A DNA stretch of 64,000 nt. It comes from an uncultured Dehalococcoidia bacterium. GTDB taxonomy: Bacteria > Chloroflexota > Dehalococcoidia > Lucifugimonadales > UBA3495. This document shows, in pieces, positions 3,038-49,239 of the stretch. The stretch lies in NCBI GenBank assembly GCA_951813535.1, contig OX638345.1, positions 3,028,608 through 3,092,607 on the forward strand. The letters are read 5' to 3'. Position numbers and translations under genes: made by a program. The first letter of the stretch is position 1. Each line of letters opens with the position of its first letter. The notes below the pieces were generated by a model. That model was given only the letters and a program-made list of their open reading frames with translations, was not told where the DNA came from and made no database searches.

Positions 3038-3103
3038 GGTCGGGCTGAGAACTGAAGGGTCGGCGTTGGGGCGGATTCATCGTAGCAACGGCCCCAACAA
3101 GTG

Positions 3104-4255: not shown

Positions 4256-4664
4256 GCAATTGCCCACTGCCTTCGCGCCGGCCCTCGAGGTATTCAATGG
4301 CTTCCTGCGGGAGAGACACACCAAGCCGCTGGAGTTCCGCGCGCATGGTTTCGCGTTCCTCTCGCCGGCCTTCGTTCCGGCCTTCGCGCCGGCCCTCGTC
4401 AAGCCACCTTTGTCTGCGTCTAGCTCTGATGTCCGACATTTTCTCAAACATTTTGCGCACTCCGTCAAACAGCCCGGCCAACGGTATTACCAAGGCCCAG
4501 TAGAGTTTGGTGACCGTAATCTCGAAGTAATTAAACGCCCGCAGTTCCGAGCCGGAAAACTCCGCGAGGACGGCGATGCTGGCGCAAGCTGTCAGCGTGA
4601 AGCCGCCAATTTGCCAATAAATACCGCGATCAACCAGTTCGCTGGTGGCATCCGACGAACGCAT
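4236..4664 (-). CDS. Hypothetical 2-TM membrane protein with an Arg/Glu-rich tail
   Basis: Two hydrophobic segments (IYWQIGGFTLTACASIAVLAEF and LYWALVIPLAGLF) are followed by RARRRQRWLDEGRREGRNEGRREERE. Same strand as its neighbours, lower GC (29/60 on line 4501), no recognisable family. Confidence 0.4.
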   Translation of the reverse strand: MRSSDATSELVDRGIYWQIGGFTLTACASIAVLAEFSGSELRAFNYFEITVTKLYWALVIPLAGLFDGVRKMFEKMSDIRARRRQRWLDEGRREGRNEGRREERETMRAELQRLGVSLPQEAIEYLEGRREGSGQLHGRNDL

Positions 4665-4682
4665 TGTAGCATCCTATCGCAT

Positions 4683-5309
4683 TCAGCCGCCCGGACGGCG
4701 AGACCACGCCCCCGGGTCAATCGCGCTCATGGTGCCCAATGACACGTCGATCTCGCCGGCGATTTTGCGGTCCCATTCGTCGGCCCATCGTTTGGGCAGC
4801 CGAGGCCGCGCCTCCCGCCAGGTCATCCGGCCACCGCCATTGGTACGGGCAGCCACGGCTTCCACCAGGAACGCGGTCATATCACCGCCGTCCATAGCGT
4901 TGACCACGCGGCAATCAAGGTACCCATAGCATCCCTCGAGCAGGGGGCTGCCCGTGGCGCCGAGGGCATGACCCACGTCCTCAAGCTTGTCGCCATCGCG
5001 CCCCGAGTGCATCCCCAACTGCCAGATCAGCGGCAATTGGCTGCTTTCCAGGAAATTGATCGCCAGCACGCCGCTGGAGGCGATCAGGCCGTGGGTGAAG
5101 TTGGTGTGGTAGATCTGGACAATCAGCCGAGGCCGCTGGGGGACTATGGAAGCGGCAGTGATCGCCACCGCGATCTGCGCGTTGCTCACGTCTCCCGCCC
5201 GGGTCGAGACTGCCGCCAACGGAGCGCTGAGCCCGCCCAACAGCGGGCCGACGTCGGCGGGGTTCACATCTGAAGCGGAGTGAGCCATCGCCCCTGAAGG
5301 TTCACTCAT
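4683..5309 (-). CDS. Flavin reductase family protein (FMN-binding split barrel)
   Basis: LAAVSTRAGD..AVAITAASIVPQRPRLIVQIYHTNFTHGLIASSGVLAINFL fits the flavin reductase-like domain pattern. Confidence 0.7.
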   Translation of the reverse strand: MSEPSGAMAHSASDVNPADVGPLLGGLSAPLAAVSTRAGDVSNAQIAVAITAASIVPQRPRLIVQIYHTNFTHGLIASSGVLAINFLESSQLPLIWQLGMHSGRDGDKLEDVGHALGATGSPLLEGCYGYLDCRVVNAMDGGDMTAFLVEAVAARTNGGGRMTWREARPRLPKRWADEWDRKIAGEIDVSLGTMSAIDPGAWSRRPGG

Positions 5310-5314
5310 CGTTC

Positions 5315-6346
5315 CTACCAGTCAGGGTGGGTGTCCATCGGATCGTTGACGGTCAAGCGCATCTGGCCCGTTCCGTCCGCGTTCATGTACAGGACCTCGG
5401 CGTTCCCGTAAGCGTACGAGACGAATGCAATCCGGTCGTCGCCCGCGGACCAGACCGGCATCAAATCGTCTTCCGCGTTTTGGGTCAACTGTCGCCGCTC
5501 GGAACCGTCCACCAACACGGAGAATATCTCGGACTGGTCGTCGAAACGCACGACGAAGGCCAACCGCCTGCCGTCGGAGGACCAGTCAACCGAGAACTCG
5601 TCATACTCGTCTTCGGACACGGCCACCTCGTCCGTGTCATCGGCCCAGTTGTCCGAGTTGGTGGGACGCAGAACGTAAACGTCGCGATTGCCATCTGCGC
5701 TGCGCAGGAAGGCTATGCGGTCGCCTTTGGGTGACCAGACCGGGTCGGAGTCCGGCCCTGAGGTCAATTCGATCCGGTTGACGCCGTTGGGATTACGCAG
5801 AAAGAGACCGTCCGTTCCGTACTCGGTGAAGACCAGCCACTCCCCATCTGGAGACCAGTCTCCCACGAGTTCCCTTTCGGGGCTGAAGGTCAGCCGCGTT
5901 TTCTGCCCTCCCTCCAGTGTCACCATGTAAATGTCGGGCTCGCCGTCTTCGTCCGACACGTACGAAATGCGATCCGATCCGGGAGCCCAGATCGGAGGCT
6001 GCTCGGCGTCTACGTTCGAAACCAGCGCGGTGACGCCTTCGCTGCCGACGTCGTAAAGCATCAACTCGGTCTTATTGCCGACCGAAATCCAGGCAATCTT
6101 GGACTGGTCGGGCGACCAGCGCGGCGTCCTGGCGTCGGCGCTCAGGGAAGATATCCGCGAAGCCTCGTCATCTCCCGGCTGCTTGATCCATACTTGGGCG
6201 CCATCTTCGTCGGACACTATGTAGGCAATGGCTGGGAGATCCCCACCGACCAGGCCCCCCGCAAAACAACCGCCCAAAGACAAGGCCACGGCTAAACAAA
6301 CAGTCAAACACAAAAACCGAATTGTTCCCGTAGCCAATATCATCAA
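5315..6346 (-). CDS. TolB-like WD40/PD40 beta-propeller lipoprotein
   Basis: Signal peptide ends in a lipobox-like SLGGC. Repeated units (P.WSPDG..IAF.S.R.G) are visible: WSPDQSKIAWIS, WAPGSDRISYVS, WSPDGEWLVFT, WSPKGDRIAFL, WSSDGRRLAFV, WSAGDDRIAFVS. Confidence 0.8.
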   Translation of the reverse strand: MMILATGTIRFLCLTVCLAVALSLGGCFAGGLVGGDLPAIAYIVSDEDGAQVWIKQPGDDEASRISSLSADARTPRWSPDQSKIAWISVGNKTELMLYDVGSEGVTALVSNVDAEQPPIWAPGSDRISYVSDEDGEPDIYMVTLEGGQKTRLTFSPERELVGDWSPDGEWLVFTEYGTDGLFLRNPNGVNRIELTSGPDSDPVWSPKGDRIAFLRSADGNRDVYVLRPTNSDNWADDTDEVAVSEDEYDEFSVDWSSDGRRLAFVVRFDDQSEIFSVLVDGSERRQLTQNAEDDLMPVWSAGDDRIAFVSYAYGNAEVLYMNADGTGQMRLTVNDPMDTHPDW

Positions 6347-6553
6347 TATTCGTTCCGACCGGAGGTGATTGCGATGCGGCGATTATATCGTAGCGAACTG
6401 CCCGGATACTCGGCGTCCGGAGACCATTTGCGCGGTTTGTGTTTCTTGACATCCGCGGGGGCCCAATTTAGCATCCCTTCATCTCAATGATATCTGGCGC
6501 CGTCGACGGGTTACCCAGTCGGCTGCGCGTTCTGCACAAATGCGAGGTCCATC

Positions 6554-7807
6554 ATGCTGGCAATAGTTGGAGGAAATCTCGTCGACGGCTCGGGCAGCCC
6601 CAGGGTGGAAAACGCCACTGTACTGATCGACGGCGACCGCATCGTGGAGGTCGGCCCGCAGGCGTCCGTTCCCGTTCCCGAGGGCGCGGAAGTACTGGAT
6701 GCCAGCGGTCACACCGTGATGCCCGGACTGATCGACGTGCACGACCACCTGGCCTCGGGAGGATACGGACTTACAGGCCGTTGGGGCATGGACGAGCCGC
6801 TGTCGCTTTTAAGCATCAGAACGGCGCAGGTCATCGAAGACACGCTGGCCGCCGGCTACACCACGGTGCGCGACGCCGGGGGCCTCGACGCCGGTTTCAA
6901 GATGGCCGTGGAGCAGGGCCTGATCAAGGGCCCGCGTCTCATCATCTCGGTCAATATCATGTCTCCCACCGGCGGGATCGAGGACAAGGTGAGCGGGAGC
7001 GGACACCGCAAGGTCATCCTGGGCCACGATCCCCTGTCCCCTGACGGTGTGGCCGACGGAGTGGACGGTGTGCGGGCCAAGGTGCGCGAGTTGGTCCGCT
7101 GTGGCGCCGACCAGATCAAGTTCGCGACCACCGGCGGCGCGTCCGGTCGCCCCGGCAACGGCCCGTTGGACCAGGCCTACACGCTGGATGAGGCAAAAGC
7201 GCTGGTTGACGAAGCCGCCGCCCTGGGCCGCAGCACTCTCTGCCACGCCGTGGGTGGCACCGGCCTGCCCATCGCCATCAGGGCCGGCGCCGGCTCCATC
7301 GAACACGGGTGCTACCTGGCCACGGACCCTGACATGCTGAAAATGATGGCCGATCAGGGCACCTTCTTCACCCCGACCTTCGAGGTCTACGACTTCCACA
7401 GCACGGTCAGCGCGCCACACATCAAGGTACGGGCGCAGGCGCTGATGGACATTCACATTCAGAGCACCGAACTCGCCATCAAGGAGGGCGTGCGCATCGT
7501 GGCGGGAACCGACGCCGGCGGTTTCGTGCACGGCGACAACGCCCGCGAACTGGAACTGATGGTTGAAAAGGGCATGAGCAACATGCTGGCCATCCAGGCC
7601 GCCACGGGTTACGCCGCCGAGTGCTGTGGCATCGGAAAAGAGGTCGGAACCATCGAGGCGGGCAAGCAGGCCGACGTGTTGGTGGTGGACGGCGACCCGT
7701 TGCAGAACATCTCGGTCCTGAGAGACCGCGAGCGCTTGCTCCTGATCATGAAGGGCGGCGAAGCCTACACCAATCGCCTGCCAGCCAGGGAGCTGCAACC
7801 CGCCTAG
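6554..7807 (+). CDS. Amidohydrolase family metal-dependent hydrolase
   Basis: GHTVMPGLIDVHDHL metal-binding HxH motif, later HA..G and AGTDAG. GAGG Shine-Dalgarno (SD) sequence upstream. Confidence 0.8.
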   Translation: MLAIVGGNLVDGSGSPRVENATVLIDGDRIVEVGPQASVPVPEGAEVLDASGHTVMPGLIDVHDHLASGGYGLTGRWGMDEPLSLLSIRTAQVIEDTLAAGYTTVRDAGGLDAGFKMAVEQGLIKGPRLIISVNIMSPTGGIEDKVSGSGHRKVILGHDPLSPDGVADGVDGVRAKVRELVRCGADQIKFATTGGASGRPGNGPLDQAYTLDEAKALVDEAAALGRSTLCHAVGGTGLPIAIRAGAGSIEHGCYLATDPDMLKMMADQGTFFTPTFEVYDFHSTVSAPHIKVRAQALMDIHIQSTELAIKEGVRIVAGTDAGGFVHGDNARELELMVEKGMSNMLAIQAATGYAAECCGIGKEVGTIEAGKQADVLVVDGDPLQNISVLRDRERLLLIMKGGEAYTNRLPARELQPA

Positions 7808-7882
7808 TCACGTTACAGGTCGGGCAAGCCCCGCCGGCAGTGCGGACAATCACCGCGGGTGGGATACTCGGTCGCCGCTGCG

Positions 7883-8638
7883 ATGCGTTTCACCATCCTT
7901 ACGCTGTTTCCGGACGCGTTCCGGTTCATGGAGGATTACAGCGTGCTGGGTCGAGCCACCCGCGGCGGACTGATCTCCCTGGAAACCGTCGATATCCGGG
8001 AGTTCGCCACTGACCGTCACAGTACCGCCGACGACTACCAGTTCGGCGGTGGACCCGGTATGGTCATGAAACCGGATCCGGTGTTTGCCGCGGTGGAAAC
8101 TGCCCTGGCAAACATTCCCGCAGAGGAACGGTCGGCAACACCCGTTGCGCTAACCTCACCGCAGGGAAACTATCTGGACCAGGACCTTGTCAACGAGTTG
8201 GCCGCCGCGCCGGGCATCATCATCATTTGCGGGCACTATGCCGGTGTTGACGAACGCATCCGGCAGGACTTGATCACCCACGAAATCTCCATCGGGGATT
8301 ATGTGCTGACGGGTGGAGAGCTAGCCGCCATGGTGATCATCGACGCAGTGTCCCGCTTTGTGCCGGAGGTAGTTGGCTCGGCGGAGAACGTGGAGCACGA
8401 CAGCATCACCTCGGGTTTGTTGCAGCACCCGTTGTACACCCGTCCCGCCGAGTTTCGCGGAATGGCCGTGCCGGAAATACTGAGATCCGGCAACCACGCC
8501 GACATTGAGCGTTGGCGACGGCAGCAGTCCCTGGAACGGACGCTGCGCCTGCGGCCCGATTTGCTGGACACCGCGCCGCTGACCAACTCCGACCGCGTCT
8601 TCCTGGCTAGCCTGGGATGGAGCGGAGCAGCAGACTGA
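7883..8638 (+). CDS. trmD: tRNA (guanine37-N1)-methyltransferase
   Basis: [13 protein letters not shown].., [14 protein letters not shown] and [10 protein letters not shown] are TrmD hallmarks. The ORF opens at 7859, but the homologous N-terminus is at ATG 7883. Confidence 0.9.
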
Positions 8639-8639
8639 C

Positions 8640-9164
8640 ATGACGCAACGGCGTTCGGACTACCCTTTCGGTCTCGACGTGCGGGTGCGCTGGCAGGAGT
8701 GCGACGCGCAGGGCATAGCTTTCAACGGCAGCTACCTGGGCTGGTTGGAAATCGCCCAGGCGGAGTATTTCCGCAACCTGGGGTTCAGCATCTACCGCGT
8801 CGCGGCCGCGGGCTATTTCGATAGCGCGGTCGCCAAGGTCACCATCGAGTACAAGGCGCCGGTCCGGGTGGACGAAATGCTGGACCTTCGAGCCAGGGTC
8901 GCTCGCATCGGCAACACCAGCCTGGCGTTGGAAGTCGCCATCTTCGCGGAGGGAGGAGCCCCCGACGACGCTCCGCTCACGACCATTGAGGCCATATACG
9001 TGGGATTCTACGCGGACACCGGGCGGACCAGGCGGGTTCCCGATTCGATCCGCGAATTGGTGGAAAGTTGGGAATCGGCCGGCGCAGTCCTGCCCCTGGC
9101 TACATTCCCGGAACTGGCGGCAGCGCAATCCGGCAGCGTCGAACCTGCGGCTCCGACGAACTGA
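8640..9164 (+). CDS. Acyl-CoA thioesterase, 4HBT/YbgC-like hotdog fold
   Basis: VRVRWQECDAQGIAFNGSYLGWLEIAQAEYFRNLG is the typical hotdog thioesterase N-terminus. Confidence 0.7.
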   Translation: MTQRRSDYPFGLDVRVRWQECDAQGIAFNGSYLGWLEIAQAEYFRNLGFSIYRVAAAGYFDSAVAKVTIEYKAPVRVDEMLDLRARVARIGNTSLALEVAIFAEGGAPDDAPLTTIEAIYVGFYADTGRTRRVPDSIRELVESWESAGAVLPLATFPELAAAQSGSVEPAAPTN

Positions 9165-34851: not shown

Positions 34852-35126
34852 ATCGCCTACCCAGGGTCAGTTATCGCGGGCGATTATATCGCAGACCCGC
34901 CAGCAACTACCCTCCTTCGACGCCGGTGCGAATCCGCTTTTGGACCGGCCCTGCTCGTGAGCGCAGCGCTGCTATCTCTTTGGCGGATCCATCGCCAGGG
35001 CGTCCGGGTTCCGGCGCCGGCTCGTTTTTCGCGATCACAAACCCGGTTCCCAATGGCGCCATCACGAAGATGCTTTTCAACTGTTCGCCAAGCCGCCGCC
35101 ATCACAAATCGTGATAACAACCGGGT

Positions 35127-35155
35127 TGTTGGAACGGGTCTTCATTTGTGATAGA
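35127..35155 (+). promoter_or_regulatory. Candidate promoter of the SelW-like gene, with extended -10
   Basis: TTGGAA-17 nt-TAGAAT with TGa immediately upstream of the -10. About 45 nt upstream of ATG 35201. Confidence 0.45.
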
Positions 35156-35200
35156 ATTCTCAAGGCAGGCGCCAATACACGCTCCATTCGGAGGAGAAAC

Positions 35201-35488
35201 ATGGAAGGAAAGGTTCAGATCGAGATTACCTACTGCGTGCCTTGACAGCACCACGCTACCGCCACGTGGATGGCGAACGAGTTTTTCCGGGCCTACGGCG
35301 GCGACGCCGCTATCACGATCTCCCCGCGCGGACAGAGCATCATGGAAGTGTTCGTGGACGGTGAGAAGATCTTTGATCGGAAGGCCGAGGGCAACATCTA
35401 CCCCGACTTGGGCCGCGTCCGCAAGATGAAGGAAGTCATTTCCGCCAGGATCGCGAGCGCCGACCTCGCCGTGGCCGCCGACAACTAG
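35201..35488 (+). CDS. Rdx/SelW-like thioredoxin-fold selenoprotein (in-frame TGA = Sec at 35243-35245)
   Basis: The ORF track only calls 35270..35488. From ATG 35201 (GGAGGAG 4 nt upstream) the same frame reads MEGKVQIEITYCVP-TGA-QHHATATWMANEFF.., which matches the bacterial Rdx pattern IEYC..C....AAWMA.EL with CxxC replaced by CxxU. Confidence 0.7.
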
Positions 35489-35510
35489 TCGAGCACACCA
35501 AACGGAATTG

Positions 35511-35546
35511 AAAGCCGCCGCCCTCACGGGCGGCGGCTTTATTTGG
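35511..35546. terminator. Bidirectional intrinsic terminator between the SelW-like gene and tmk
   Basis: aaagccgccgccc-tcac-gggcggcggcttt followed by atttgg. A/T runs on both sides between convergent genes. Confidence 0.7.
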
Positions 35547-35571
35547 TTGCGCGGAGCTGTTGATAACGCGA

Positions 35572-36240
35572 TTATGAAACAGACCCTGCCATGTTTTTCG
35601 ACATCACTAGCGGCTCAGTAACTGCCCTCACTACGGCAGATACCTGCGAAATCGAACGGTGACCATCGACGATGTGCCAGTGATCAGGGTCAGATTCGGC
35701 CTGCTTTAGGAACCCGCGCCGGACATCGTCATGAAAAGACAAGATTTCTTCTTCGAACCTGTCTGGCGTATCGCCAATGGGCAGAGCGAGTTGCAACTGC
35801 CGACTGTTCACCCGCTCCAGTCCTACCAATGGATCAATATTCAGCAAGATGGTGAGGTCGGGATACAATTCGCCAGTGGCAAAATCGTTGAGCCATCGGA
35901 TTTGGTCCAATTCGATACCGCGCCCATACCCTTGGTATGCGATTGTTGATCCCGCGAAACGGTCTGCTACAACGATCGCCCCCTCTGACAAATGCGGCCG
36001 CACTTGTTCAGAAATGAGCTCCGCTCGCGAGGCTTCAAACATCAGCAACTCCGCCAAAATTGTGACTGGACGATCGCTGACCAAGTATTCCCTCAAGTAG
36101 TTGCCCAATTCCGTAGAACCGGGCTCGCGCACTGGCACCGCGTGATAACCCAGTGCGCTCAAATGTGACACGAGCAAGCGCGCTTGCGTGGACTTGCCCG
36201 CCCCTTCACCGCCTTCAAAAGCTATGAAAACCCCCGACAT
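35572..36240 (-). CDS. tmk: Thymidylate kinase
   Basis: GVFIAFEGGEGAGKSTQ P-loop, then DRF..S..AYQG. Confidence 0.9.
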   Translation of the reverse strand: MSGVFIAFEGGEGAGKSTQARLLVSHLSALGYHAVPVREPGSTELGNYLREYLVSDRPVTILAELLMFEASRAELISEQVRPHLSEGAIVVADRFAGSTIAYQGYGRGIELDQIRWLNDFATGELYPDLTILLNIDPLVGLERVNSRQLQLALPIGDTPDRFEEEILSFHDDVRRGFLKQAESDPDHWHIVDGHRSISQVSAVVRAVTEPLVMSKNMAGSVS

Positions 36241-39857: not shown

Positions 39858-40571
39858 TCAATCCAGCGCCAGCGCCGCCAATGCAGCGCGAGCCGCGGCA
39901 ACTTCGGCGGCGTTCTTGCTCGAACCGACGCCGGTGCCGAGAACCTGCTCGCCAGCGGAGACCTCGACGTCGAAACTGGGCCGGTGAGATGGACCGGCGG
40001 AGCCTACCACGCGGTAAACCGGGGTAGGTTTGCCCTGACCCTGGAGAAGTTCCTGCAGTTCGGCTTTGGGATTGTCAGGGCGCCAGCCGGGTTGGCAAGC
40101 CGATGCGATCGGTTCGGCCAGGGCGCGCAGGACGAAATCGTGGGTGGCTCCGTAGCCCTGGTCCAGGTAGATTGCCGCGATAACCGATTCCATGACGTCG
40201 CCCAGCACGGCGTCGCCGTCTCGCCCGCCGGACGCCTCGAAACCGCGGCCCAGCAGGACATACTCGGCCAACCCCAGTTCTCGGGCGGCGGCGGCCAGGG
40301 CGCGTTGGCTGAGCAGGGCGGTCCAGCGCCGGGTCAGGCCGCCTTCGTCGCATTCGGGCAGTCGGCGGAACAGTTCTTCACTCACGATGAGCCGGACCAC
40401 GACGTCTCCAAGGAACTCCAGGCGTTCGTAGGAATCGGTGTCCGAGCCGCCAGTCTCGTTGACATACGACCGGTGGGTGAGCGCCTGAATGAGCAAGCCC
40501 CGGTCCTGAAAACTCAGGCCCAGGGCTTGTTCCAGTTCGGCGACGGCGCAATGTCCGCCAAACGAACTCAA
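39858..40571 (-). CDS. rnc: Ribonuclease III
   Basis: LIQALTHRSY..ERLEFLGDVVV signature plus a C-terminal dsRBD (GPSHRPSFDVEV..G.GSSKN.AE..AA). Confidence 0.9.
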   Translation of the reverse strand: MSSFGGHCAVAELEQALGLSFQDRGLLIQALTHRSYVNETGGSDTDSYERLEFLGDVVVRLIVSEELFRRLPECDEGGLTRRWTALLSQRALAAAARELGLAEYVLLGRGFEASGGRDGDAVLGDVMESVIAAIYLDQGYGATHDFVLRALAEPIASACQPGWRPDNPKAELQELLQGQGKPTPVYRVVGSAGPSHRPSFDVEVSAGEQVLGTGVGSSKNAAEVAAARAALAALALD

Positions 40572-40589
40572 TGGAGTAAGCGGTGCGCT

Positions 40590-41222
40590 TTAGCTGCGCA
40601 CGCCTTCATAGGGCCACGGCGGGGACGGGCGCTTGACCTCGCCCACGTGCCTGTGGTCAGCCATCATTTCGACCAGGTTGTCGTAGATGGGTCCGGACTC
40701 GTCTTCCGACGGGATAAACATCTTGACGAAGGCGGAGTTGCCGTTCGGGAAGACGTAGAGCGGCACCCCGAAGGCGCCGTGGACTTCGACGGCCTCGGTG
40801 TGGCTCTCGCCGATTTCGCGAAGAACGTCAGGGTCGGCCAGGTCTTCGGCAAACCGGCCCATGTCGACGCCCGAGGCCTCGGCCACGGCATTGATGGCGT
40901 CCGCGTCGGTCAGGTCGATGCGATCTTCGTGTCGAGCCCTCAGCAGGTTGATGAAGAAACGATCAAAGATCTCCTCACCCTGGCGCTGGGCGGCGATGCC
41001 GGCGCGCAACTCGAGCAGCGTGTTGTCCGAGTCGTCCTGCTCCCAGAACTTGAAGCCGTCGTCGTTGTTGTTGTCGTGATTTACCTGAACCAGCGAGAAC
41101 GGCTTCAGATCCACGGCGATTTCGTGGTCAGTGTTCTCGCGTACTTTCGCCCACCACATGGCAGCGTTGTACACGAAGGGTCAACGAAAGTCGTAATAAA
41201 CGGTGAAATCAGATTCGGCCAT
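40590..41222 (-). CDS. DsbA-like (Rv2466c-type) thioredoxin-fold protein with in-frame TGA (candidate Sec) at the active site
   Basis: The ORF track calls only 40590..41174. ATG 41222 (GGAGG 7 nt upstream) opens the same frame: MAESDFTVYYDFR-TGA(41183-41181)-PFVYNAAMWWAKV... This aligns with FWFDPLCPWCW of DsbA-like reductases, with the TGA at the first Cys. Confidence 0.65.
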
Positions 41223-41295
41223 AGTGGCACCTCCTGAGGGCGGGTTTTCCGACGTGCTCAAACATCTGGTTCGAGGTCGCCAGTTTGTTGGGCCG

Positions 41296-41326
41296 ATTGT
41301 AGCACAGAGCTATCCGGGCTGGGCAA
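41296..41326 (-). promoter_or_regulatory. Candidate promoter for the DsbA-like gene (extended -10)
   Basis: Minus strand reads TTGCCC-19 nt-TGcTACAAT, about 70 nt upstream of ATG 41222. Confidence 0.35.
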
Positions 41327-41542
41327 GCAGCGAGCCGGCGACTGGGGCTTGAAGAACCAGCCACAATTAAATAAACGCGCTTGGCCGTCATCATAAACGC
41401 GCTGGGTCCTCATCGGTCGCAGCGGCCATCAACGGAAATCAACCGCGTCCTGGCAATCCCCTATCGGCGTGAATCCGCTGAATCCAGTATCGTTGCATTC
41501 GTCATAGCAATGCAAACGCGGCGGTGTTATGCCCGATTCGTA

Positions 41543-41571
41543 ATTGACCAAAAATATGTCGATTGTTACAA
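41543..41571 (+). promoter_or_regulatory. Candidate promoter of P450-1 with an overlapping palindromic operator
   Basis: TTGACC-17 nt-TACAAT. The perfect 10-bp palindrome ATTGCGCAAT (41570-41579) overlaps the -10/+1 region. Confidence 0.5.
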
Positions 41572-41655
41572 TTGCGCAATCGCGGCGACTATTGCCGCTG
41601 GTCATTGTATGTCCGGCGGTGAGTTTGACCATGAAAAGTCAACGGGAGGGACTTT

Positions 41656-42942
41656 ATGGTTACCACCTTTAATGAAAATCTGTTTTCCCCTGAGGTGATT
41701 CAGGACCCGTATTCGTACTTCGGGCGGATGCGCGAGGAAGATCCGGTTCACTGGAATGACCCCTACAAGCTGTGGGTCATTACCAAGTACAAGGACTTGG
41801 TCTGGGTCACCCGACGCCCCGAGGCGTTCTCGTCCGAAGTGTTCACCCGGGACCCGCTGCCTCCGTATCCCTCGATCGACGAGTCGGACATGGGCCTCTA
41901 CGAGGACGTGCGGAACTTCTTCAGCCAGTGGTTCATCCAGACCGACCGGCGAGCGGTGAGCACCCACGAGGAGATCCGTGAGCACGGCGGCCCTGACCAC
42001 ACCGACATGCGCAAGGTCATCCACGGCTACTTCACGCCGAAGGCCATGGAACTGTGGCGGCCGCTGGTTCAGTCTGCCATCAAGCAGTTGCTGGACGAGG
42101 CGGAAGAGCGCGGCAGCATGGACGTGATGCGCGACTACGCCACCCCGTTGCCCCTGCTGGTGATCGCCGCCATGATGGGCATCGAGACCTATGACCGGCA
42201 GTTCATCCGCTCCCTGGCCGAGAAACTGCTGTTCATCGGGCGCGGCAATGCCGACCGGATGCAGCCATTGTCCGAGGGCATCACCGAACTGCAGGAGTAC
42301 CTGCGGCCGATGGTGAAGGACCGCCTGAAGAACTCCAACGGCGACCTGCTGGACAAGATGACCGACGCCGCCCGCATGACCAACGCGGCCGGCAAGCAGA
42401 TCATGGACGAAGAGCAGGTGGTAGCCAACGCGATCCTGCTGCTGTTGGCCGGTCACGAGACCACCATCAACCTGATCTGCAACGGCACCCGGGCGTTCAT
42501 GACGCACCCGGACCAGTGGGATCTGTTCAAGTCCGATCCGGCCGGCCGCATGATCCGGGCCACCGAGGAATGCCTCCGGTACGACGCCCCGGTCAAGTCC
42601 ATCACCCGCATCGCCGGCGAGGACGTTGAACTGGGTGGCAAGACCATCCAGAAGGACGAGCGGATGCGCTGGTTCGTTACCTCCGCTAACCGCGACCCTG
42701 AGGTCTTCGACCGACCCGACGACTTTGACATCGAGCGGTACCCGAACCCTCACGTGGCCTTCGGCAGCGGCATCCACCACTGCCTGGGTGCGACCCTGGC
42801 GCGGCTCGAAGGGCAGGAAGCGTTCAAGGCTCTGGCCGAAAGGTTCCCGAACCTGAACATGGACTGCAACCCGGACGACCTGACCTATACCTCCAGCATC
42901 ACTTTCCGGACGCTGGAAAAGTTGCCGGTCAGCCTGTCGTAA
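41656..42942 (+). CDS. Cytochrome P450 (copy 1 of 4)
   Basis: I-helix LLLAGHETT, K-helix ECLRYDAP, heme loop FGSGIHHCLGATLAR. Confidence 0.92.
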   Translation: MVTTFNENLFSPEVIQDPYSYFGRMREEDPVHWNDPYKLWVITKYKDLVWVTRRPEAFSSEVFTRDPLPPYPSIDESDMGLYEDVRNFFSQWFIQTDRRAVSTHEEIREHGGPDHTDMRKVIHGYFTPKAMELWRPLVQSAIKQLLDEAEERGSMDVMRDYATPLPLLVIAAMMGIETYDRQFIRSLAEKLLFIGRGNADRMQPLSEGITELQEYLRPMVKDRLKNSNGDLLDKMTDAARMTNAAGKQIMDEEQVVANAILLLLAGHETTINLICNGTRAFMTHPDQWDLFKSDPAGRMIRATEECLRYDAPVKSITRIAGEDVELGGKTIQKDERMRWFVTSANRDPEVFDRPDDFDIERYPNPHVAFGSGIHHCLGATLARLEGQEAFKALAERFPNLNMDCNPDDLTYTSSITFRTLEKLPVSLS

Positions 42943-42969
42943 TCGCCGCGAACCACCCCCTGGGGTTAC

Positions 42970-43005
42970 GAGGCCCGGCGAACATTCGCCGGGCCTCATC
43001 GTTTT
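42970..43005 (+). terminator. Intrinsic terminator after P450-1
   Basis: gaggcccggcg-aacat-tcgccgggcctc followed by atcgtttt. Confidence 0.65.
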
Positions 43006-43010
43006 ACCGC

Positions 43011-43039
43011 TTGCGTGGCAAGCATCCTGAGCCTATAAT
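43011..43039 (+). promoter_or_regulatory. Candidate promoter of P450-2
   Basis: TTGCGT-17 nt-TATAAT. TATAATCGGC recurs upstream of P450-3 (44512-44521). Confidence 0.5.
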
Positions 43040-43111
43040 CGGCGCATCACAGCAGTTTGTGCTGCGCAATTCGTCGGCAAATCGCGTGTCGCACACCGGA
43101 GGTCGCAGGAA

Positions 43112-44371
43112 ATGGTTAGCACGATCAACGACAACCCGTTCTCCCTGGAAGCAATGTACCAGCCCTACGAATTCTTCGCGCGCCTGCGCGAATGGGAGCC
43201 GGTCCATTACAACGAGGAATTTGAAGTCTGGATGGTCACTGACTGGGAGCACCTCGTATGGGTGACCCGGCATCCGGAGGTCTTCTCGTCCAGCGTGTTC
43301 GCCCGGGACCCCCGGCCGCCGAACCCGCCCATCGACGAAGACGACATGGAGATCTACAACTACATCAAGAAGTGGCAGGTCTCCCGGTTCATCCAGCACG
43401 ACCAGAAGCGGTACAACCCCGGGGTCAGCGGGCCCGATCACGTGGACATGCGCCGGGTGATGCACGGCTACTTCACGCCCAAGTCCATGGAGATGTGGCG
43501 ACCGCTGGTGCAGTCGGCCATCGACGAGTTGCTGGACGCGGTGCAGGAAAAGGGCCGCATGGACGTGATGGCCGACCTGGCGACGCCACTGCCTCTGCTG
43601 GTGATCGCGCGGATGCTGGGCATCCCGGACAGCGACCGGCCCATTATGCGCCGGCTGGCCAAGGACTTGCGTCACCTGAACCGGACGGGACCGGACCGGA
43701 TGGGTCCGCTGTCGGAATCAGTGCAGAACCTGCAGGACTACCTGGGCCCGTTGGTCGACGAACGCATCGCCAGCCCCAAGGACGATCTGATTTCGGTCGT
43801 TGCCGAGGGTGCGCGTCGGGGCATCTTCGACCGCGACATGGTGGTCAACAACGTGATGCTGCTGCTGTCGGCCGGTCACGAGACCACCATCAACCTGATC
43901 TGCAACGGCACGCTGGCGTTCACGCAGCATCCGGACCAGTGGGCGATCCTGAAGTCAGATCCCGAGGGCAAGACGGTGCGGGCCACCGAGGAGGCCCTGC
44001 GCTACGACTCGCCGGTGAAGTCCATCCAGCGGATCGCGATGGAGGATATGGAGTTGAACGGGCAGCCCATCAAGAAGAACGACCGGGTGCGGTGGTTCAT
44101 CTCCGGGGCCAACCGGGACCCCAAGGTATTCGACCGGGCGGACGATTTCGACGTCGAACGCTACCCCAACATGCACGTGGCATTTGGCAGCGGTATCCAT
44201 CACTGCCTGGGCGCGACCCTGGCACGGCTGGAGGGGCAGGAGATCTTCCGCAACCTGGCCAACCGGTTCGAGAGCCTGGAGCTGGAGATCCCGGCAGACC
44301 AGGTCGAATATGACCAGTTGATCGGCTTGCGGGCAGTTGAGGGCCTGCCGGTCACAGTGACCAACGCCTGA
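43112..44371 (+). CDS. Cytochrome P450 (copy 2 of 4)
   Basis: LLSAGHETT, EALRYDSP, FGSGIHHCLGATLAR. Confidence 0.92.
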   Translation: MVSTINDNPFSLEAMYQPYEFFARLREWEPVHYNEEFEVWMVTDWEHLVWVTRHPEVFSSSVFARDPRPPNPPIDEDDMEIYNYIKKWQVSRFIQHDQKRYNPGVSGPDHVDMRRVMHGYFTPKSMEMWRPLVQSAIDELLDAVQEKGRMDVMADLATPLPLLVIARMLGIPDSDRPIMRRLAKDLRHLNRTGPDRMGPLSESVQNLQDYLGPLVDERIASPKDDLISVVAEGARRGIFDRDMVVNNVMLLLSAGHETTINLICNGTLAFTQHPDQWAILKSDPEGKTVRATEEALRYDSPVKSIQRIAMEDMELNGQPIKKNDRVRWFISGANRDPKVFDRADDFDVERYPNMHVAFGSGIHHCLGATLARLEGQEIFRNLANRFESLELEIPADQVEYDQLIGLRAVEGLPVTVTNA

Positions 44372-44398
44372 CGGCGCGCCGGTCATTCGGCTTTTTCA

Positions 44399-44440
44399 GC
44401 GACAGGGATGGGTGTCATGCCCATCCCTGTCGCCTTTTAT
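44399..44440 (+). terminator. Intrinsic terminator after P450-2
   Basis: gcgacagggatgggt-gtcat-gcccatccctgtcgc followed by cttttat. Confidence 0.7.
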
Positions 44441-44588
44441 GCGTCATGCTCGATACGGGCGGTACGCGGCGGAATGGTACGCGAACGTGTCCAAACGGTG
44501 CGAAAATCGGTTATAATCGGCCAATCCGCAGGGTTCGCGGGCTGTTCAGCCGGCGACCGAGTCAACGTACCACCGGAGGTTCCAACCA

Positions 44589-45860
44589 ATGGTCACCACC
44601 TTCAACGACAATCCGTTTTCGCCGGAAGCGATTTACAAGCCTTACGACTTTTACAACCGGCTGCGAGAGCACGAGCCGGTGTATTACAACGAGCAGTTCG
44701 AGGTGTGGATGATCACCTCGTGGGAACACCTGGTCTGGGTGACCCGGCATCCTGAGGCGTTCTCCTCCAGCGTATACGCGCGGGATACCCGCGCCCCCAA
44801 CCCGCCCATTGATGAGGATGACCTGGAGCTGTACAACTTCATCAAGAAGTGGCAGGTTTCCCGGTTCATCCAGCACGACCAGCGCCGGTATAACCCCGAC
44901 GTCAGCGGCTCCGACCATGTTGATATGCGCCGGGTCATGCACGGATATTTCACGCCCAAGTCCATCGAAATGTGGCGCCCCCTGGTGCAGTCGGCCATTG
45001 ACGAATTGCTCGACGCCGTAGAAGCGAAAGGCCGCATGGACGTGATGGCCGACCTGGCCACCCCGCTGCCTCTCCTGGTCATCGCTCGGATGCTTGGCAT
45101 CCCGGACAGCGAGCGGGAGCGCCTTCGTGAACTGGCCAAGGACCTGCGGTTCCTCAACCGCGAGGGTCCCGACCGCATGAAGCCGCTGACCCAGGCGGTG
45201 CGAAACCTGCAGGACTTCATCGCGCCCATGGTCGAGGATCGGGTCAACAGCCCCGAGAATTTCGATGCCACCGACCTGATGTCCGTGGTCTGCGAAGGCG
45301 AACGGCAGGGCGTGTTCAACCGGGACATGACTGTCAACAACATCATGCTGTTGCTGTCTGCCGGCCACGAGACCACCATCAACCTGATCTGCAACGGCAC
45401 GCTGGCATTTACGCAGCACCCGGAACAGTGGGCCATTCTGAAGTCCGATCCCGAAGGGAAGACCGTTCGCGCCACCGAAGAAGCCCTCCGGTATGACTCG
45501 CCGGTCCGGTCCATCCAGCGCATCGCAATGGATGACATCGAAATGAACGGCCAGTTGATCAAGAAGAACGATCGGGTCCGCTGGTTCATTCCTGGCGCCA
45601 ACCGTGACCCCAAGGTGTTCGACCGTGCCGATGACTTTGACATCGAGCGGTACCCGAACCAGCACGTCGCCTTTGGCAGCGGTGTCCATCACTGCCTGGG
45701 CGCCACGCTGGCTCGTCTGGAAGGACAGGAAATCTTCCGCAACCTGGCCAACCGGTTCGAAAACGTCGAACTGGAAATCCCGGTGGAACAGGTCGAATAC
45801 GACCATGTGCTCACCTTCCGCGCGGTGGAGAGCCTCCCGGTGAAGGTCACCAGCGTGTAG
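44589..45860 (+). CDS. Cytochrome P450 (copy 3 of 4; close paralog of copy 2)
   Basis: LLSAGHETT, EALRYDSP, FGSGVHHCLGATLAR. 46 of the first 60 residues are identical to copy 2 by hand alignment. Confidence 0.92.
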   Translation: MVTTFNDNPFSPEAIYKPYDFYNRLREHEPVYYNEQFEVWMITSWEHLVWVTRHPEAFSSSVYARDTRAPNPPIDEDDLELYNFIKKWQVSRFIQHDQRRYNPDVSGSDHVDMRRVMHGYFTPKSIEMWRPLVQSAIDELLDAVEAKGRMDVMADLATPLPLLVIARMLGIPDSERERLRELAKDLRFLNREGPDRMKPLTQAVRNLQDFIAPMVEDRVNSPENFDATDLMSVVCEGERQGVFNRDMTVNNIMLLLSAGHETTINLICNGTLAFTQHPEQWAILKSDPEGKTVRATEEALRYDSPVRSIQRIAMDDIEMNGQLIKKNDRVRWFIPGANRDPKVFDRADDFDIERYPNQHVAFGSGVHHCLGATLARLEGQEIFRNLANRFENVELEIPVEQVEYDHVLTFRAVESLPVKVTSV

Positions 45861-45892
45861 CAGCCGTCACTCTCAATACTGGATGCGCAAAC

Positions 45893-45930
45893 GGCCGACA
45901 GCCCCGGATGGTGCTGTCGGCCAACTTTAT
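45893..45930. terminator. Intrinsic terminator between P450-3 and the convergent HicA-like gene
   Basis: ggccgacagc-(10 nt)-gctgtcggcc followed by aactttatt. Confidence 0.6.
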
Positions 45931-45942
45931 TCTGCCTGCCAG

Positions 45943-46188
45943 CTAATGGTCGCTGTAAAGAGATTCCAATGCCGCTTCTATCTCAAATCTGCTAATGCCA
46001 ATTTTGGAAAGGTTGTAAACAAGGTCCTCAAACGGTATGTCCCACCCATCGACTACTACGGTTATCAGGTCATCAAGGTGCCTGCCGACGTAAACCGCAT
46101 AGCTTCCAAATCGCTCGACTTGATGGATGTCCAGCCGCGCCAGGATCCCGGAAACTTCTAACCAGCTCAGTTGCCGGTCGTCAGGCAA
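45943..46188 (-). CDS. Degenerate HicA-like (YcfA/dsRBD-like) small protein
   Basis: TTG 46188 overlaps the upstream TGA. EVSGILARLDIHQVERFGSYAVYVGR..ITVVVDG..EDLVYNLSKIGISRFEI lines up with the HicA pattern l..lGf..vrqkGSH.....vtvp.H...l..gtl..ilkqagls, but has GSY instead of GSH. Confidence 0.45.
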   Translation of the reverse strand: MPDDRQLSWLEVSGILARLDIHQVERFGSYAVYVGRHLDDLITVVVDGWDIPFEDLVYNLSKIGISRFEIEAALESLYSDH

Positions 46189-46528
46189 CGAGCACTTCCT
46201 CGATCCTCGTTTCCATAGACCCGTCGCATTGTCCAATGCGTGGTTCTCCGTCGTAACCCGTCCCAAGCAGATTGCCTTCCGCCTGAGCGTCCTGGTCGTC
46301 GGGAACGACGCTGAAGTGCTTTACCCCGCGCTTTTGCAGGAAGCGCTCGATGCCTTCCAAGTCTCCGTGAAAACTCCCGAGCAACGCTGTAAGGGCCTTG
46401 TTGACTTCCGATTTGGCGGATTCACGGGTGGCGCCGTACACGGTAAATCCGAACTCGGGTGATCGACAGGCCCAGTGATCCGATCTGTTTTCGGTTAGAA
46501 CAGCAATTTGTAGCAACACTTTAACCAT
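46181..46528 (-). CDS. HicB-like antitoxin-fold protein
   Basis: LQIAVLTENRSDHWACRSPEFGFTVYGATRESAKSEVNKALTALL fits the HicB N-terminal fold pattern. Very low GC neighbourhood (23/60 on line 45961). Confidence 0.5.
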   Translation of the reverse strand: MVKVLLQIAVLTENRSDHWACRSPEFGFTVYGATRESAKSEVNKALTALLGSFHGDLEGIERFLQKRGVKHFSVVPDDQDAQAEGNLLGTGYDGEPRIGQCDGSMETRIEEVLVA

Positions 46529-46666
46529 GGTTGTGAGCCTGGCCCACCACTAGGCGGGTTGCGTCCGTGCGATCGCGGGCCACGCGACGGATGTCCACGG
46601 TTTGAATTGTAACATCGCTTGTGATAATTTTGACGCCAGCCAGGCCTGCATACCGAGGGGTTCACC

Positions 46667-47896
46667 ATGCCCGCAAACATCCACGACGACCTGTTCGCCG
46701 CCGAGGCCATCCGTGATCCGTACGGCTATTTCGGGGCGTTGCGGTCGGAGGCGCCGGTACACTGGAACGAGCAATACCAGATGTGGGTGGTGACCAGCTA
46801 CGAACGGCTGGTTTGGACCGCCCGACATCCAGAATATTTCTCCTCGGAGGTGGCGCTGCGGGACAACAAGCCGCCTTCACCTACGATCCCTGAAGAAGAC
46901 ATGGAGCTTTTCGGCGCGGTGCGGAATTGGATGTCCGCCCGGTTCACCCAGAACGACGGCGCCAAGCACAAGGAAAAGCGCAAGATCGTGCATGGATTCT
47001 TCACTCCCAAGGCGATGGAAACCTGGCGTCCGCTGGTCCGCCAAACGGTGAACGACCTGCTGGACGATCTGCAGGGCGCCGGCAGAATGGACGTGATGCA
47101 CGACTTCGCTACGCCGCTCACCTATAGCATCATCGCCGGCCTGATGGACATACCGCCCAGCGACCGGGCTTTCGTCAAGGAGCTGTGCGGCAGCATGTGC
47201 GGGTTCGACGGAAACCAGCCGGACCGGATCCGGATGTATGCCGAAGGGGTACAGGCGGTGACCGATTACCTAGCGCCCATAGTGGCGGAGCGGGTTCGGG
47301 ACCCGGGCGATGACCTGCTGTCCGTGATCTGCAAAGGCGAGATCATGGGCGCCTACACCCGGGACGAGGTGTTGGCCAATGCCCTGCTGCTGCTCGTCGC
47401 CGGCCACGAGACTACCAATGACCTGATTTCCAACGGAGTGCTGGCGTTTGCGCACCACTCCGATCAGTTCGACCTGCTTCGAACCGACCCTGACGCCCAC
47501 ATTGTCAATGCAGTCGAGGAAGTGTTGCGTTACGATTCGCCGCTCAAGTCGGTACAGCGAATCGCGACCCAGGACGTGGACATGGGCGACGGCCAGAGAG
47601 TGGGCAAGGACGACCGCGTGCGCTGGGTTATCTCATCGGCCAATCGGGATCCGGGAGTTTTCGAGGAACCGGATGGCCTGGACATCACGCGAAACCCGAA
47701 CCCGCACGTGTCCTTCGGAAGCGGCGTGCACCACTGCCTGGGCGCGACCCTGGCGCGCCTGGAGGGACAGGAAGCGTTTGCGGAACTGGCCCGCCGGTTC
47801 GAAGGGTTTGAACTGGAAACGGATCCGAACGAGCTCGAATACCTGCCCAGCGTCGGGCAACGCACTTTGCTGAACCTGCCGGTTGCGACACGCTAG
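46667..47896 (+). CDS. Cytochrome P450 (copy 4 of 4)
   Basis: LLVAGHETT, EVLRYDSP, FGSGVHHCLGATLAR. Confidence 0.92.
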   Translation: MPANIHDDLFAAEAIRDPYGYFGALRSEAPVHWNEQYQMWVVTSYERLVWTARHPEYFSSEVALRDNKPPSPTIPEEDMELFGAVRNWMSARFTQNDGAKHKEKRKIVHGFFTPKAMETWRPLVRQTVNDLLDDLQGAGRMDVMHDFATPLTYSIIAGLMDIPPSDRAFVKELCGSMCGFDGNQPDRIRMYAEGVQAVTDYLAPIVAERVRDPGDDLLSVICKGEIMGAYTRDEVLANALLLLVAGHETTNDLISNGVLAFAHHSDQFDLLRTDPDAHIVNAVEEVLRYDSPLKSVQRIATQDVDMGDGQRVGKDDRVRWVISSANRDPGVFEEPDGLDITRNPNPHVSFGSGVHHCLGATLARLEGQEAFAELARRFEGFELETDPNELEYLPSVGQRTLLNLPVATR

Positions 47897-47965
47897 CGAC
47901 CGGTCGCCGCTATCAAACTGGCGAACACCCCCGATTAGCCTGAACATCACGAGGAGGTTACCCCG

Positions 47966-48190
47966 ATGCCCCGACAGTTGAAAATCACCGTGGACTACAA
48001 CGTGTGCGTAGGCAACGCCATGTGCGAGACCTTCGCAGAAAACACGTTCGGCTTGAACGAAGACCGCCAAAGCTACGTAAAGGACGCCGCGGGGGACCCT
48101 GAGGACACGATCATCGAGGCCGCCGAGAACTGCCCGGTTACGGCGATCACGGTCGAAGACGCTGAAACGGGTGAGATCCTTTTCCCGTAG
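47966..48190 (+). CDS. Small single-cluster ferredoxin (3Fe-4S type, P450 redox partner-like)
   Basis: 74 aa with Cys pattern CVGNAMC ... CP, as in the ferredoxins that sit next to bacterial class I P450s. Confidence 0.8.
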   Translation: MPRQLKITVDYNVCVGNAMCETFAENTFGLNEDRQSYVKDAAGDPEDTIIEAAENCPVTAITVEDAETGEILFP

Positions 48191-48216
48191 CGACGTCCGA
48201 AATCGATTTTAAAGCG

Positions 48217-48247
48217 GGGGCGAATCATTGTTCGCCCCTATCTTTTT
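48217..48247. terminator. Hairpin/terminator between the ferredoxin and the convergent LLM gene
   Basis: ggggcgaa-tcattg-ttcgcccc followed by tatcttttt. Overlaps the last codons of the minus-strand gene. Confidence 0.55.
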
Positions 48248-49239
48248 GCGATGACTTCCTCGCCGAAACGACGGATGATGTCCGCCGGGTCCTGGCTGAT
48301 GGCGGTAATCTGCAGCACGTCGGCGCCGGATTCGGCGATCTGACCGACCTTGGCGCGACATTCCTCGGGAGTACCGACCACGGCGAACCGATCAGCCAGG
48401 TAATCGGTCACGCCTAGCTCGTCGGACAACGCTGCGTTGCGGGTTTCTCCGACCTGCTCGTGCTCGGCTGGGACATATTCCCCCTGGATGATCTGCATGG
48501 CCTCGTGCAGTTCAGGCGGCACGTGCTTGCCTTCCAGGGTGAAACGGAACGCGTGGTGCGCGCTGGCGGCCAGGGCCATCCGGATTTCGTCGATTGCCTC
48601 GGCGTGGTCATCGGCGATGTTGCACTTGGCGAAAGCCCAGACTTCAGCGGACCCGGCTGCCTTGCCCGCGTCGGTTTCGCCTTCCCGGATGCGCGATACG
48701 GTGTCGGCCAATATTTCCGGCGTGAGCCCGGTGTGGACCATGACCCGGTCGGCGATTTCTCCAGCCATGTGCAGGGTTCGTGGACCCTCGGCGGACATCA
48801 TGATTGGCACCGGGTCGCTGCTCCAGCGCACATGGCCCTCGCGACCCAAGTATTCCGAAGTTTCACCAGCGAGGAAAGCGCGGACAGCGGCAACGTACTC
48901 GCGAAGCGCGCGCATCCGCGCCGGCCGGAGTCCAAGGTTCAAGATGGCGCTGTCGCCAGTGCCAACGCCGAGGAAGGCTCTGCCCTCGGACAGTTCCTGC
49001 AACGAGGCGATAGCCGAGGCCGTGACCGCGGGATGACGGGTCAGCGGATTGGTGACCGACGGCCCCAGATGCACACGGGATGACTCGGTGGCTGCCACGG
49101 CCAGCGAGACAAATAGCTCGCGAAAGAGCGATTGGGAATCGGCGACCCCTATGTAGTCGAAACCGACCGCCTCGGCGAGGCGAACGTGGCGCCGGAAAGA
49201 TTCGTAGGAATTGGGTAGGAGGGTTACACCGTACTTCAT
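48238..49239 (-). CDS. LLM-class F420/flavin-dependent oxidoreductase
   Basis: MKYGVTLLPN..AEAVGFDYIGVADSQSLFRELF..RVHLGPSVTNPLTRHPAVTASAIASLQELSEGRAFLGVGTG. Confidence 0.85.
   Translation of the reverse strand: MKYGVTLLPNSYESFRRHVRLAEAVGFDYIGVADSQSLFRELFVSLAVAATESSRVHLGPSVTNPLTRHPAVTASAIASLQELSEGRAFLGVGTGDSAILNLGLRPARMRALREYVAAVRAFLAGETSEYLGREGHVRWSSDPVPIMMSAEGPRTLHMAGEIADRVMVHTGLTPEILADTVSRIREGETDAGKAAGSAEVWAFAKCNIADDHAEAIDEIRMALAASAHHAFRFTLEGKHVPPELHEAMQIIQGEYVPAEHEQVGETRNAALSDELGVTDYLADRFAVVGTPEECRAKVGQIAESGADVLQITAISQDPADIIRRFGEEVIAKR

Follow-up and report, generated by a model that had tools for sequence, protein, structure and literature searches.

A tandem block of cytochrome P450 paralogs with one ferredoxin gene, conserved across a Dehalococcoidia genus and probably organized as separate transcription units

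The genome of an uncultured Dehalococcoidia bacterium (GenBank assembly GCA_951813535.1) consists of a single contig (OX638345.1) of 4.38 Mb with 62.7% G+C, and a stretch of 64,000 nucleotides within it (positions 3028608-3092607, hereafter the window) carries four co-directional cytochrome P450 genes, here called c1 to c4, followed by one gene for a small ferredoxin (fdx). This block is likely an old, genus-wide class I P450 system, whose paralogs arose by tandem duplication before the genus radiated and are kept as separate transcription units, with c4 and fdx alone forming a bicistronic one. Class I systems with a ferredoxin of the CXXNXXC(X)nCP type are a familiar kind of redox chain, found here in a little-studied lineage, so that the finding adds a member and not a mechanism to a system kind that is already well known. 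The block would nevertheless be an example of tandem paralogs that were long retained as insulated transcription units and whose spacers host small mobile cassettes. Its four P450s, together with a ferredoxin of their own, also make up a defined set for expression and screening that about 50 species have conserved. The coordinates of all features are collected in Table 1.

Gene content and family assignment

All four P450s exceed the gathering cut-off of PF00067 (77.6-90.7 bits against 22.8), and the I-helix motif AGHETT, the K-helix motif EExLRYDxP and the haem loop FGSG(I/V)HHCLGATLAR are invariant from c1 to c4. The superfamily signatures FGSGxHHCLG, EExLR and AGHETT are likewise invariant in 113 sequences from the genus. 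Coordinates, Pfam matches and motifs thus agree with the original prediction, a short annotation made earlier from the letters of this DNA, which had named four co-directional P450 genes sharing the three motifs. The ferredoxin that it placed after c4 is also there, behind a gap of 69 nt; the 74-residue open reading frame (ORF) matches the single-cluster ferredoxin models Fer4_13 and Fer4_15 in Pfam and contains exactly three cysteines.

Pairwise protein identities among the copies are 47-58%, except for c2 and c3, which are 81% identical (79% in DNA). In the customary CYP nomenclature a line of 40% identity delimits a family, and a 55% rule is also used. By both rules, the adjacent and co-directional copies would be assigned to one CYP family, and with identities of 47-81% the idea that they belong to unrelated families, which would speak against local duplication, falls away. 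The genome as a whole encodes seven P450s: the four of the array, one dispersed paralog of the same family (c5) and two distant ones. The surroundings of c5 comprise CoA-transferase genes and a response regulator gene, lack a ferredoxin gene and give no hint of a substrate. The two distant P450s (466 and 480 residues; genome positions 2187764-2189164 and 97637-99079) are of a different class, with strong full-length Pfam matches; their nearest NCBIfam model is a pentalenene oxygenase, far below its cut-off, and neither is linked to any ferredoxin gene examined.

Age and stability of the block

A profile of the four copies was searched in the same genus and in 16 other sampled families of the order. 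The array is present in all 24 other species of the genus and in none of the 16 other families, one of which gave a single weak match. The gene order c1-(c1')-c2-c3-c4-fdx, where c1' is an extra c1-like copy, is followed by a convergent gene for a luciferase-like (LLM) oxidoreductase in 24 of 24 of these species. Copy number ranges from three (five species) to five (three species). More widely, orthologs of c4 with 81-97% identity occur in about 52 species-level metagenome-assembled genomes (MAGs) filed as Dehalococcoidia, Chloroflexota or SAR202 bacterium. Their source names, which include a protein filed under Geodia barretti, sponge metagenomes and host organisms given as codes, indicate sponge holobionts.

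In a tree of 113 sequences, c1, c2 plus c3, c4 and c5 are each monophyletic (99-100 in the Shimodaira-Hasegawa-like approximate likelihood ratio test), with long stems (0.6-2.8) and short tips. Every genome, the three-copy ones among them, is represented in the c3 clade (support 99); therefore, the split between c2 and c3 predates the sampled genus, and the three-copy arrays have lost c2 (5 of the 24 related species). The spacers between c1 and c3 in these species contain no c2 remnants detectable with tblastn at an E-value of 1e-3 or better, so that only the tree speaks for a loss of c2. The additional copy c1', found in three species, splits off at the base of the clade formed by c1. Orthologs are 82-99% identical across the genus, and the ratio of nonsynonymous to synonymous divergence (dN/dS) lies between 0.02 and 0.08 for every P450 and for the ferredoxin.

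These data bear directly on the original prediction, in which c2 and c3 were taken for recent duplicates within a locally expanding family. The resemblance on which it was built is real: c2 and c3 are the closest pair in the array, they share 46 of their first 60 residues, and both are preceded by the same -10 context (TATAATCGG) and the same ribosome-binding-site context (ACCGGAGGT). The variation in copy number could also be taken as a sign of recent and active expansion, in which c2 and c3 would be newly duplicated and still diversifying. However, the pair differs by a dS of about 1.0 (dN 0.11, dN/dS 0.115), the c3 clade spans every genome, the orthologs are under strong purifying selection, and none of the 24 species has near-identical copies in its array. 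A recent expansion is thus highly improbable. Instead, the block is old and stable, and changes mostly by loss, either of c2 or of the extra c1-like copy.

Synonymous divergence between species is lower in c1 to c3 (0.36-0.8) than in c4 and fdx (0.65-1.3) for the same pairs of species, possibly as a result of codon selection in highly expressed genes or of exchange between species.

Origin outside the genus

A P450 gene directly followed by a gene for a ferredoxin 62-78% identical to that encoded by fdx is found in several lineages outside the genus. Other Dehalococcoidia have two tandem P450 genes and a ferredoxin gene, and the P450-ferredoxin pair also occurs in a Nitrospinota MAG and in a distant genome of about 8 Mb. 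A larger tree, whose rooting is uncertain, places c1 within a broad, short-branched clade from multiple phyla, and the groups c2/c3, c4 and c5 form long branches that have no closer relatives outside the genus. Judged by this placement, c1 appears to be conservative and, of all copies, the nearest to homologs from other phyla. The simplest history would start from the widespread P450-ferredoxin pair and proceed by tandem duplication of the whole unit before the genus radiated; the new copies (c2/c3, c4 and c5) would then have diverged fast and been conserved for a long time afterwards, while c1 stayed conservative. The -10 and ribosome-binding-site contexts shared by c2 and c3 fit such a whole-unit duplication.

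In the distant genome of about 8 Mb, an ORF of 78 residues directly after the ferredoxin gene (locus L083, 9595-9831) matches the first 64 residues of the P450s with 41-45% identity, and seems to be what is left of one more tandem copy.

Transcription signals

Alignments of the spacers from 14-25 species show drifting sequence that is broken by a few invariant blocks. Upstream of c1, the boxes ATTGACC and TGnTAnAAT, 17 nt apart, are invariant in 25 of 25 species. The TATAAT before c2 is unchanged in all 14 aligned species, with TTGC mostly kept, and TTATAAT before c3 in all 16. The boxes upstream of c4, GTTTGAAT and TGTGATAAT, are retained in 22 of 22 aligned species, regardless of whether an insert (see below) is present. 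A ribosome-binding site of the GGAGG type lies ahead of every start codon. Near-consensus promoters had originally been proposed for the first two copies; the assignment holds for c1 and for the -10 box of c2, which is perfect, but the -35 box of c2 matches the consensus at only three of six positions. Furthermore, c3 and c4 carry conserved promoter-like boxes too, which had been overlooked when a promoter of its own was ascribed to the early copies only.

The 3′ ends of the genes present a similar picture. G+C-rich hairpins follow c1, c1', c2, c3 and fdx across species, with stem sequences that differ from one species to the next. Behind c1, every species has a hairpin at this place; behind c2, all 16 aligned species have one, of varying sequence; relatives have hairpins at the same place after c3, and the hairpin downstream of fdx is found in nearly all species. 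All three hairpins originally described after c1, c2 and c3 are present; the T-run ascribed to each of them is found after c1 and c2 but is weak after c3. The spacer between c4 and fdx (63-98 nt) is different, as it contains a conserved ribosome-binding site only and its fold energy is no better than that of shuffled sequences.

Taken together, these signals predict a layout of four units, c1, c2, c3 and c4-fdx, the last being the only one with two genes and no signals between them. Each paralog would be transcribed from its own promoter of the sigma-70 type, and c1, c2 and c3 would each be closed by an intrinsic terminator; separate promoters would let each P450 reach its own expression level. 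The absence of internal promoters and terminators that would mark a single operon is seen between c4 and fdx, but not at the c1-c2, c2-c3 and c3-c4 junctions. The spacers of several species also tolerate inserts of 0.7-1.4 kb, some with opposite-strand genes or insertion sequences, which fits autonomous units.

Some further elements were observed near the start of the array. An inverted repeat (TTGCATTC-N7-AATGCAA, 41493-41515) lies about 30-50 bp upstream of the -35 box of c1; the closest clade (G000, G005, G009, G010, G014 and G015) has retained it, as have others in part, and it is possibly a binding site for an unlinked regulator. The c1 leader (41573-41655, about 85 nt) contains a short stem formed by GCCGCTGG and CCGGCGG with a few compensatory changes. 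A structured 5′ leader was rejected: the consensus fold in 20 species is an unconvincing stem of five pairs (-1.5 kcal/mol), and it has no Rfam match. A search with Rfam over 41150-48400, at E-values up to 1, gave no match anywhere.

RNA evidence from relatives

RNA evidence comes from assembled sponge-metatranscriptome contigs of relatives (85-95% identity), none of which derive from the strain of the window. Word depth was summed over 20 kb in four runs. It amounts to 300-1280 for c1 to c3 and drops about tenfold, to 25-100, for c4 and fdx; the housekeeping genes rnc, aroC and aroE and the LLM gene reach 1-20, and pdxS 30-200. The deepest run gives 1600-9000 for GroEL, which attracts many more taxa. 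So uneven a profile speaks against carry-over of DNA, and the tenfold step between c3 and c4 argues against a single uniform transcript. As supporting evidence only, contig depth indicates that c1 to c3 of the relatives are apparently strongly expressed in sponges.

The same contigs provide the main argument for a different arrangement, in which the block is one polycistronic operon that owes most of its transcription to the c1 promoter; its internal hairpins would then be attenuators or elements that affect RNA stability, and the TATAAT boxes inside the array would be minor. Specifically, contigs bridge c1 and c2 in three runs (X19, 42760-43755; X33, 42762-43929; X34, 42892-43755) and c2 and c3 in two (X33 and X34, with a skip of 129 nt), in addition to one contig that bridges c4 and fdx, and the genes are co-directional with spacers of 150-220 nt. 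Against this stand the invariance of the -35 and -10 boxes before each gene amid drifting spacers, the retention of strong hairpins with T-runs despite turnover of their sequence, the drop in depth from c3 to c4 and the tolerance of large spacer inserts; moreover, assembled contigs are unable to separate overlapping transcripts. A single operon is therefore unlikely, and separate units are preferred. The independent transcription proposed in the original prediction is accordingly borne out by the conserved boxes and hairpins in 14-25 species, but not by the contigs that cross the c1-c2 and c2-c3 junctions.

Two other stretches in the same comparison, one in the DsbA-like gene (40304-41631) and one at 34992-35655, have word depths of 550-800, as high as those of the P450s, with depths of 1-70 for the other neighbours.

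Substrate range and biological role

Whether the copies differ in substrate was approached through the placement of their differences. The six substrate-recognition regions were located on an AlphaFold model of c1 (predicted local distance difference test score 74, predicted template modelling score 0.75), and columns were counted that are conserved within each paralog group and show at least three different residues between groups. Such paralog-specific columns make up 21 of 107 positions in substrate-recognition regions against 32 of 321 elsewhere (one-sided Fisher test, p = 0.009); they cluster most densely at c1 residues 412-417, in the C-terminal beta-turn, and at 192-196, in the F-G loop. 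Insertions and deletions further distinguish the copies in the B-C region, and 8 of the 17 fixed differences between c2 and c3 fall within substrate-recognition regions. Since paralog-specific residues prefer these regions, the copies likely differ in substrate. Most likely, they oxidise different lipophilic substrates, and the diversification of substrate range put forward in the original prediction thereby gains moderate support, even if its picture of a family still expanding does not.

A contrasting possibility is a dedicated pathway, in which the P450s work one after another on a single molecule, endogenous or from the host, to tailor it or degrade it stepwise, possibly with the LLM oxidoreductase. 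All copies and the LLM neighbour indeed stay together across the genus under strong constraint on every copy, and natural-product and steroid pathways often use several P450s for successive oxidations. However, the conserved block includes no core synthase, transporter or further pathway enzyme, and a scan of the ORFs from 17.5 to 64 kb of the window revealed none; it is flanked by rnc, pdxST, aroC and aroE, the units differ strongly in expression level, and c2 or c1' can be lost while the rest remains. A functional tie to the convergent LLM gene was also examined and found unsupported: the genome contains 88 LLM monooxygenase or oxidoreductase genes, which makes adjacency weak evidence, and those next to distant P450-ferredoxin pairs belong to other subtypes and are only about 23-26% identical. 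A pathway of this kind is quite unlikely, and paralogs with different substrates remain the preferred interpretation. It is the LLM family, with 88 genes against only seven for P450s, that makes up the large paralog expansion of this genome.

In line with the original prediction, the ORFs scanned from 17.5 to 64 kb include no ferredoxin reductase, regulator or core synthase. Given the lack of a core synthase in that range and the housekeeping flanks, the block does not qualify as a biosynthetic gene cluster, and the earlier proposal to this effect is supported. The array forms an island of plus-strand genes amid minus-strand housekeeping genes, with a DsbA-like gene, rnc, pdxS, pdxT, a gene for an R3H ATPase and tmk upstream, and the LLM gene, aroC and aroE downstream.

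Chloroflexota of the SAR202 type, which abound both in sponges and in the deep ocean, are thought to oxidise organic matter that is hard to degrade; to our knowledge, none of their enzymes has a known substrate. A bolder version of the preferred interpretation would see in the array a symbiosis-specific, very highly expressed P450 set that oxidises lipophilic metabolites of the host or of co-symbionts (sterols, terpenoids, halogenated aromatics), each unit being induced by its own substrate via an unlinked regulator. If true, the array would be a main chemical interface of the holobiont, not a general scavenging tool. This proposal is speculative and rather doubtful.

Ferredoxin, electron supply and known systems

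The cysteines of the ferredoxin lie at positions 14, 20 and 56, within the motif CVGNAMC...CP, which is identical in 25 of 25 members of the genus and at 53 of 55 loci; the gene itself is present at all 55. Ferredoxins that carry a CXX?XXC(X)nCP motif constitute a CYP-associated [3Fe-4S] class, of which asparagine at the variable position is a described variant (Child et al. 2018, PMC6237146). The protein has the features of this class (a non-cysteine variable position, only three cysteines, 74 residues in a class of about 60-100 and a gene adjacent to a CYP gene), and its cluster is therefore predicted, from the motif class, to be of the [3Fe-4S] type. Presumably, this ferredoxin serves all four P450s as well as the dispersed c5, which upholds the earlier interpretation of one ferredoxin for the family.

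The source of electrons is less clear-cut. No Reductase_C domain, which would indicate a reductase of the PdR/FdR type, occurs anywhere in the genome. Seven proteins have a Pyr_redox_2 domain: two Lpd proteins, a NirB-like protein, GltD and three thioredoxin reductases. Ferredoxin reductases resembling thioredoxin reductase were ruled out, as all three of the latter retain the CxxC disulfide. The candidates left are two proteins with a ferredoxin-NADP reductase (FNR) fold, encoded at genome positions 558363 and 2873653, and two to three alpha subunits of 2-oxoacid:ferredoxin oxidoreductases, so that the ferredoxin would be reduced by one of these unlinked proteins.

Several points weigh against the interpretation as a whole. 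(i) Promoters and terminators are deduced from conservation, not from mapped RNA ends, and the contigs that bridge c1-c2 and c2-c3 reflect leaky terminators or overlapping transcripts in the relatives. (ii) Expression is poorly measured by the word depth of contigs, which sums over relatives and possibly over cross-matches between paralogs. (iii) The functions and the differences in substrate proposed for the P450s are predictions from sequence; the limits of the substrate-recognition regions were set on a model of medium confidence with the divergence pattern already in view, and the enrichment is only about twofold. (iv) No dedicated ferredoxin reductase was identified at the locus or in the genome, and the ferredoxin appears to be co-transcribed with c4, the least represented P450, so that it may not supply c1 to c3.

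The closest described parallels are the ferredoxins Fdx4, Fdx7 and Fdx11 of Mycobacterium marinum (asparagine variants) and Rv0763c and Rv1786 of M. tuberculosis (PMC6237146). As in those systems, the ferredoxin is small and acidic with three cysteines and asparagine at the variable position, its gene directly follows a CYP gene, and P450s outnumber ferredoxins, which in turn outnumber reductases. Unlike them, one ferredoxin stands behind an array of four paralogs instead of forming one-to-one pairs, the lineage is a sponge-associated Chloroflexota of the SAR202 type, a reductase of the FdR type (Reductase_C) is lacking, and the cluster type is a prediction from the motif.

Among solved structures, the best matches are PksS (CYP107K1, PDB 4yzr; E-value 1.5e-68) and BioI (CYP107H1, PDB 3ejb; 2e-62). 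The copies resemble these CYP107-type P450s, and also EryF (CYP107A1), in length, fold, the acid-alcohol pair, ExxR and the cysteine loop, but the array has no polyketide or biotin gene context. Membership in CYP107 is not indicated for c1, whose identity to PksS is 37% over 386 aligned positions, under the 40% line to a named member, in a comparison that covered solved structures only.

P450 paralogs of SAR202 have been reported, as to presence only, among the oxidative functions directed at recalcitrant organic matter (Landry et al. 2017, PMC5395668). The present genome shares with those genomes its affiliation to SAR202-type Dehalococcoidia, several P450s, a very large LLM family and CoA-transferases. 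It differs in that its genes stand in a defined array, have separate signals and are accompanied by a cognate ferredoxin, and in that its genus apparently lives in sponges and not in the dark ocean. The literature searched on SAR202 and sponge Chloroflexi mentions P450s in general terms only, not this array.

Table 1. Features of the P450 block and its surroundings (positions within the window unless marked as genome positions)
Feature	Position	Strand	Basis or remark
P450 copy 1 (c1), 428 aa	41656-42942	+	ORF, Pfam, motifs
P450 copy 2 (c2), 419 aa	43112-44371	+	ORF, Pfam, motifs
P450 copy 3 (c3), 423 aa	44589-45860	+	ORF, Pfam; 81% identical to c2
P450 copy 4 (c4), 409 aa	46667-47896	+	ORF, Pfam; joined to ferredoxin gene
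Ferredoxin (fdx), 74 aa	47966-48190	+	CVGNAMC...CP, three Cys, predicted [3Fe-4S]
c1 promoter-like site	41544-41572	+	TTGACC-17-TACAAT, TG-extended; found by scan
c2 promoter-like site	43011-43039	+	TTGCGT-17-TATAAT
c3 promoter-like site	44488-44517	+	weak -35; TATAAT at 44512-44517
c4 promoter-like site	46602-46628	+	TTGAAT box, TG-extended GATAAT
Hairpin and T-run after c1, terminator-like	42970-42997	+	12 pairs (10 G-C)
Hairpin and T-run after c2, terminator-like	44399-44433	+	16 pairs
Hairpin after c3	45893-45922	+	10-bp stem, weak T-run (failed tail rule of scan)
Hairpin between fdx and convergent LLM gene	48216-48239	.	shared terminator-like site
Two overlapping ORFs, variable insert	45943-46528	-	no part of the P450 system
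Insert ORF, 115 aa	46181-46528	-	
Insert ORF, 81-107 aa	45943-46266	-	
Convergent luciferase-like (LLM; Mer/F420-type) oxidoreductase gene	48238-49239	-	conserved neighbour in genus
Fifth same-family P450 paralog (c5)	genome 2227314-2228543		dispersed

Inserts in the spacers

The spacer between c3 and c4 is 806 bp long and holds, between the c3 hairpin and the c4 promoter, an insert of two minus-strand genes that the original prediction had missed. The insert occupies exactly the same site at 18 of 55 related loci, and elsewhere the spacer is about 150 bp long. It is absent from close sisters, and its copies are 40-88% identical against 90-97% for the flanking P450s. Neither ORF has a match in sequence searches of Pfam, NCBIfam or PDB. 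A C-terminus (...EVEAALESLY(S/T)DH) is conserved among the copies. The insert looks like a toxin-antitoxin pair.

In other species, further spacers of the array have served as landing sites while the P450 genes stay intact. Such inserts lie between c1 and c2 (loci L047 and L051), c2 and c3 (L045 and L043), c1' and c2 (L050) and c1 and c3 (L034 and L040), and further spacer inserts occur at L041, L052, L035 and L048. They comprise a nuclease-like ORF of 380-389 residues (G019 and G023), a transposase-like ORF of 378 residues (G017), a minus-strand ORF of 229 residues (G015), a pair of 232 and 121 residues (G022) and an ORF of 140-147 residues (G006 and G012), as well as short repeat-like inserts whose translation contains ...RLPRCARNDK... 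(G007, G013, G020 and G024).

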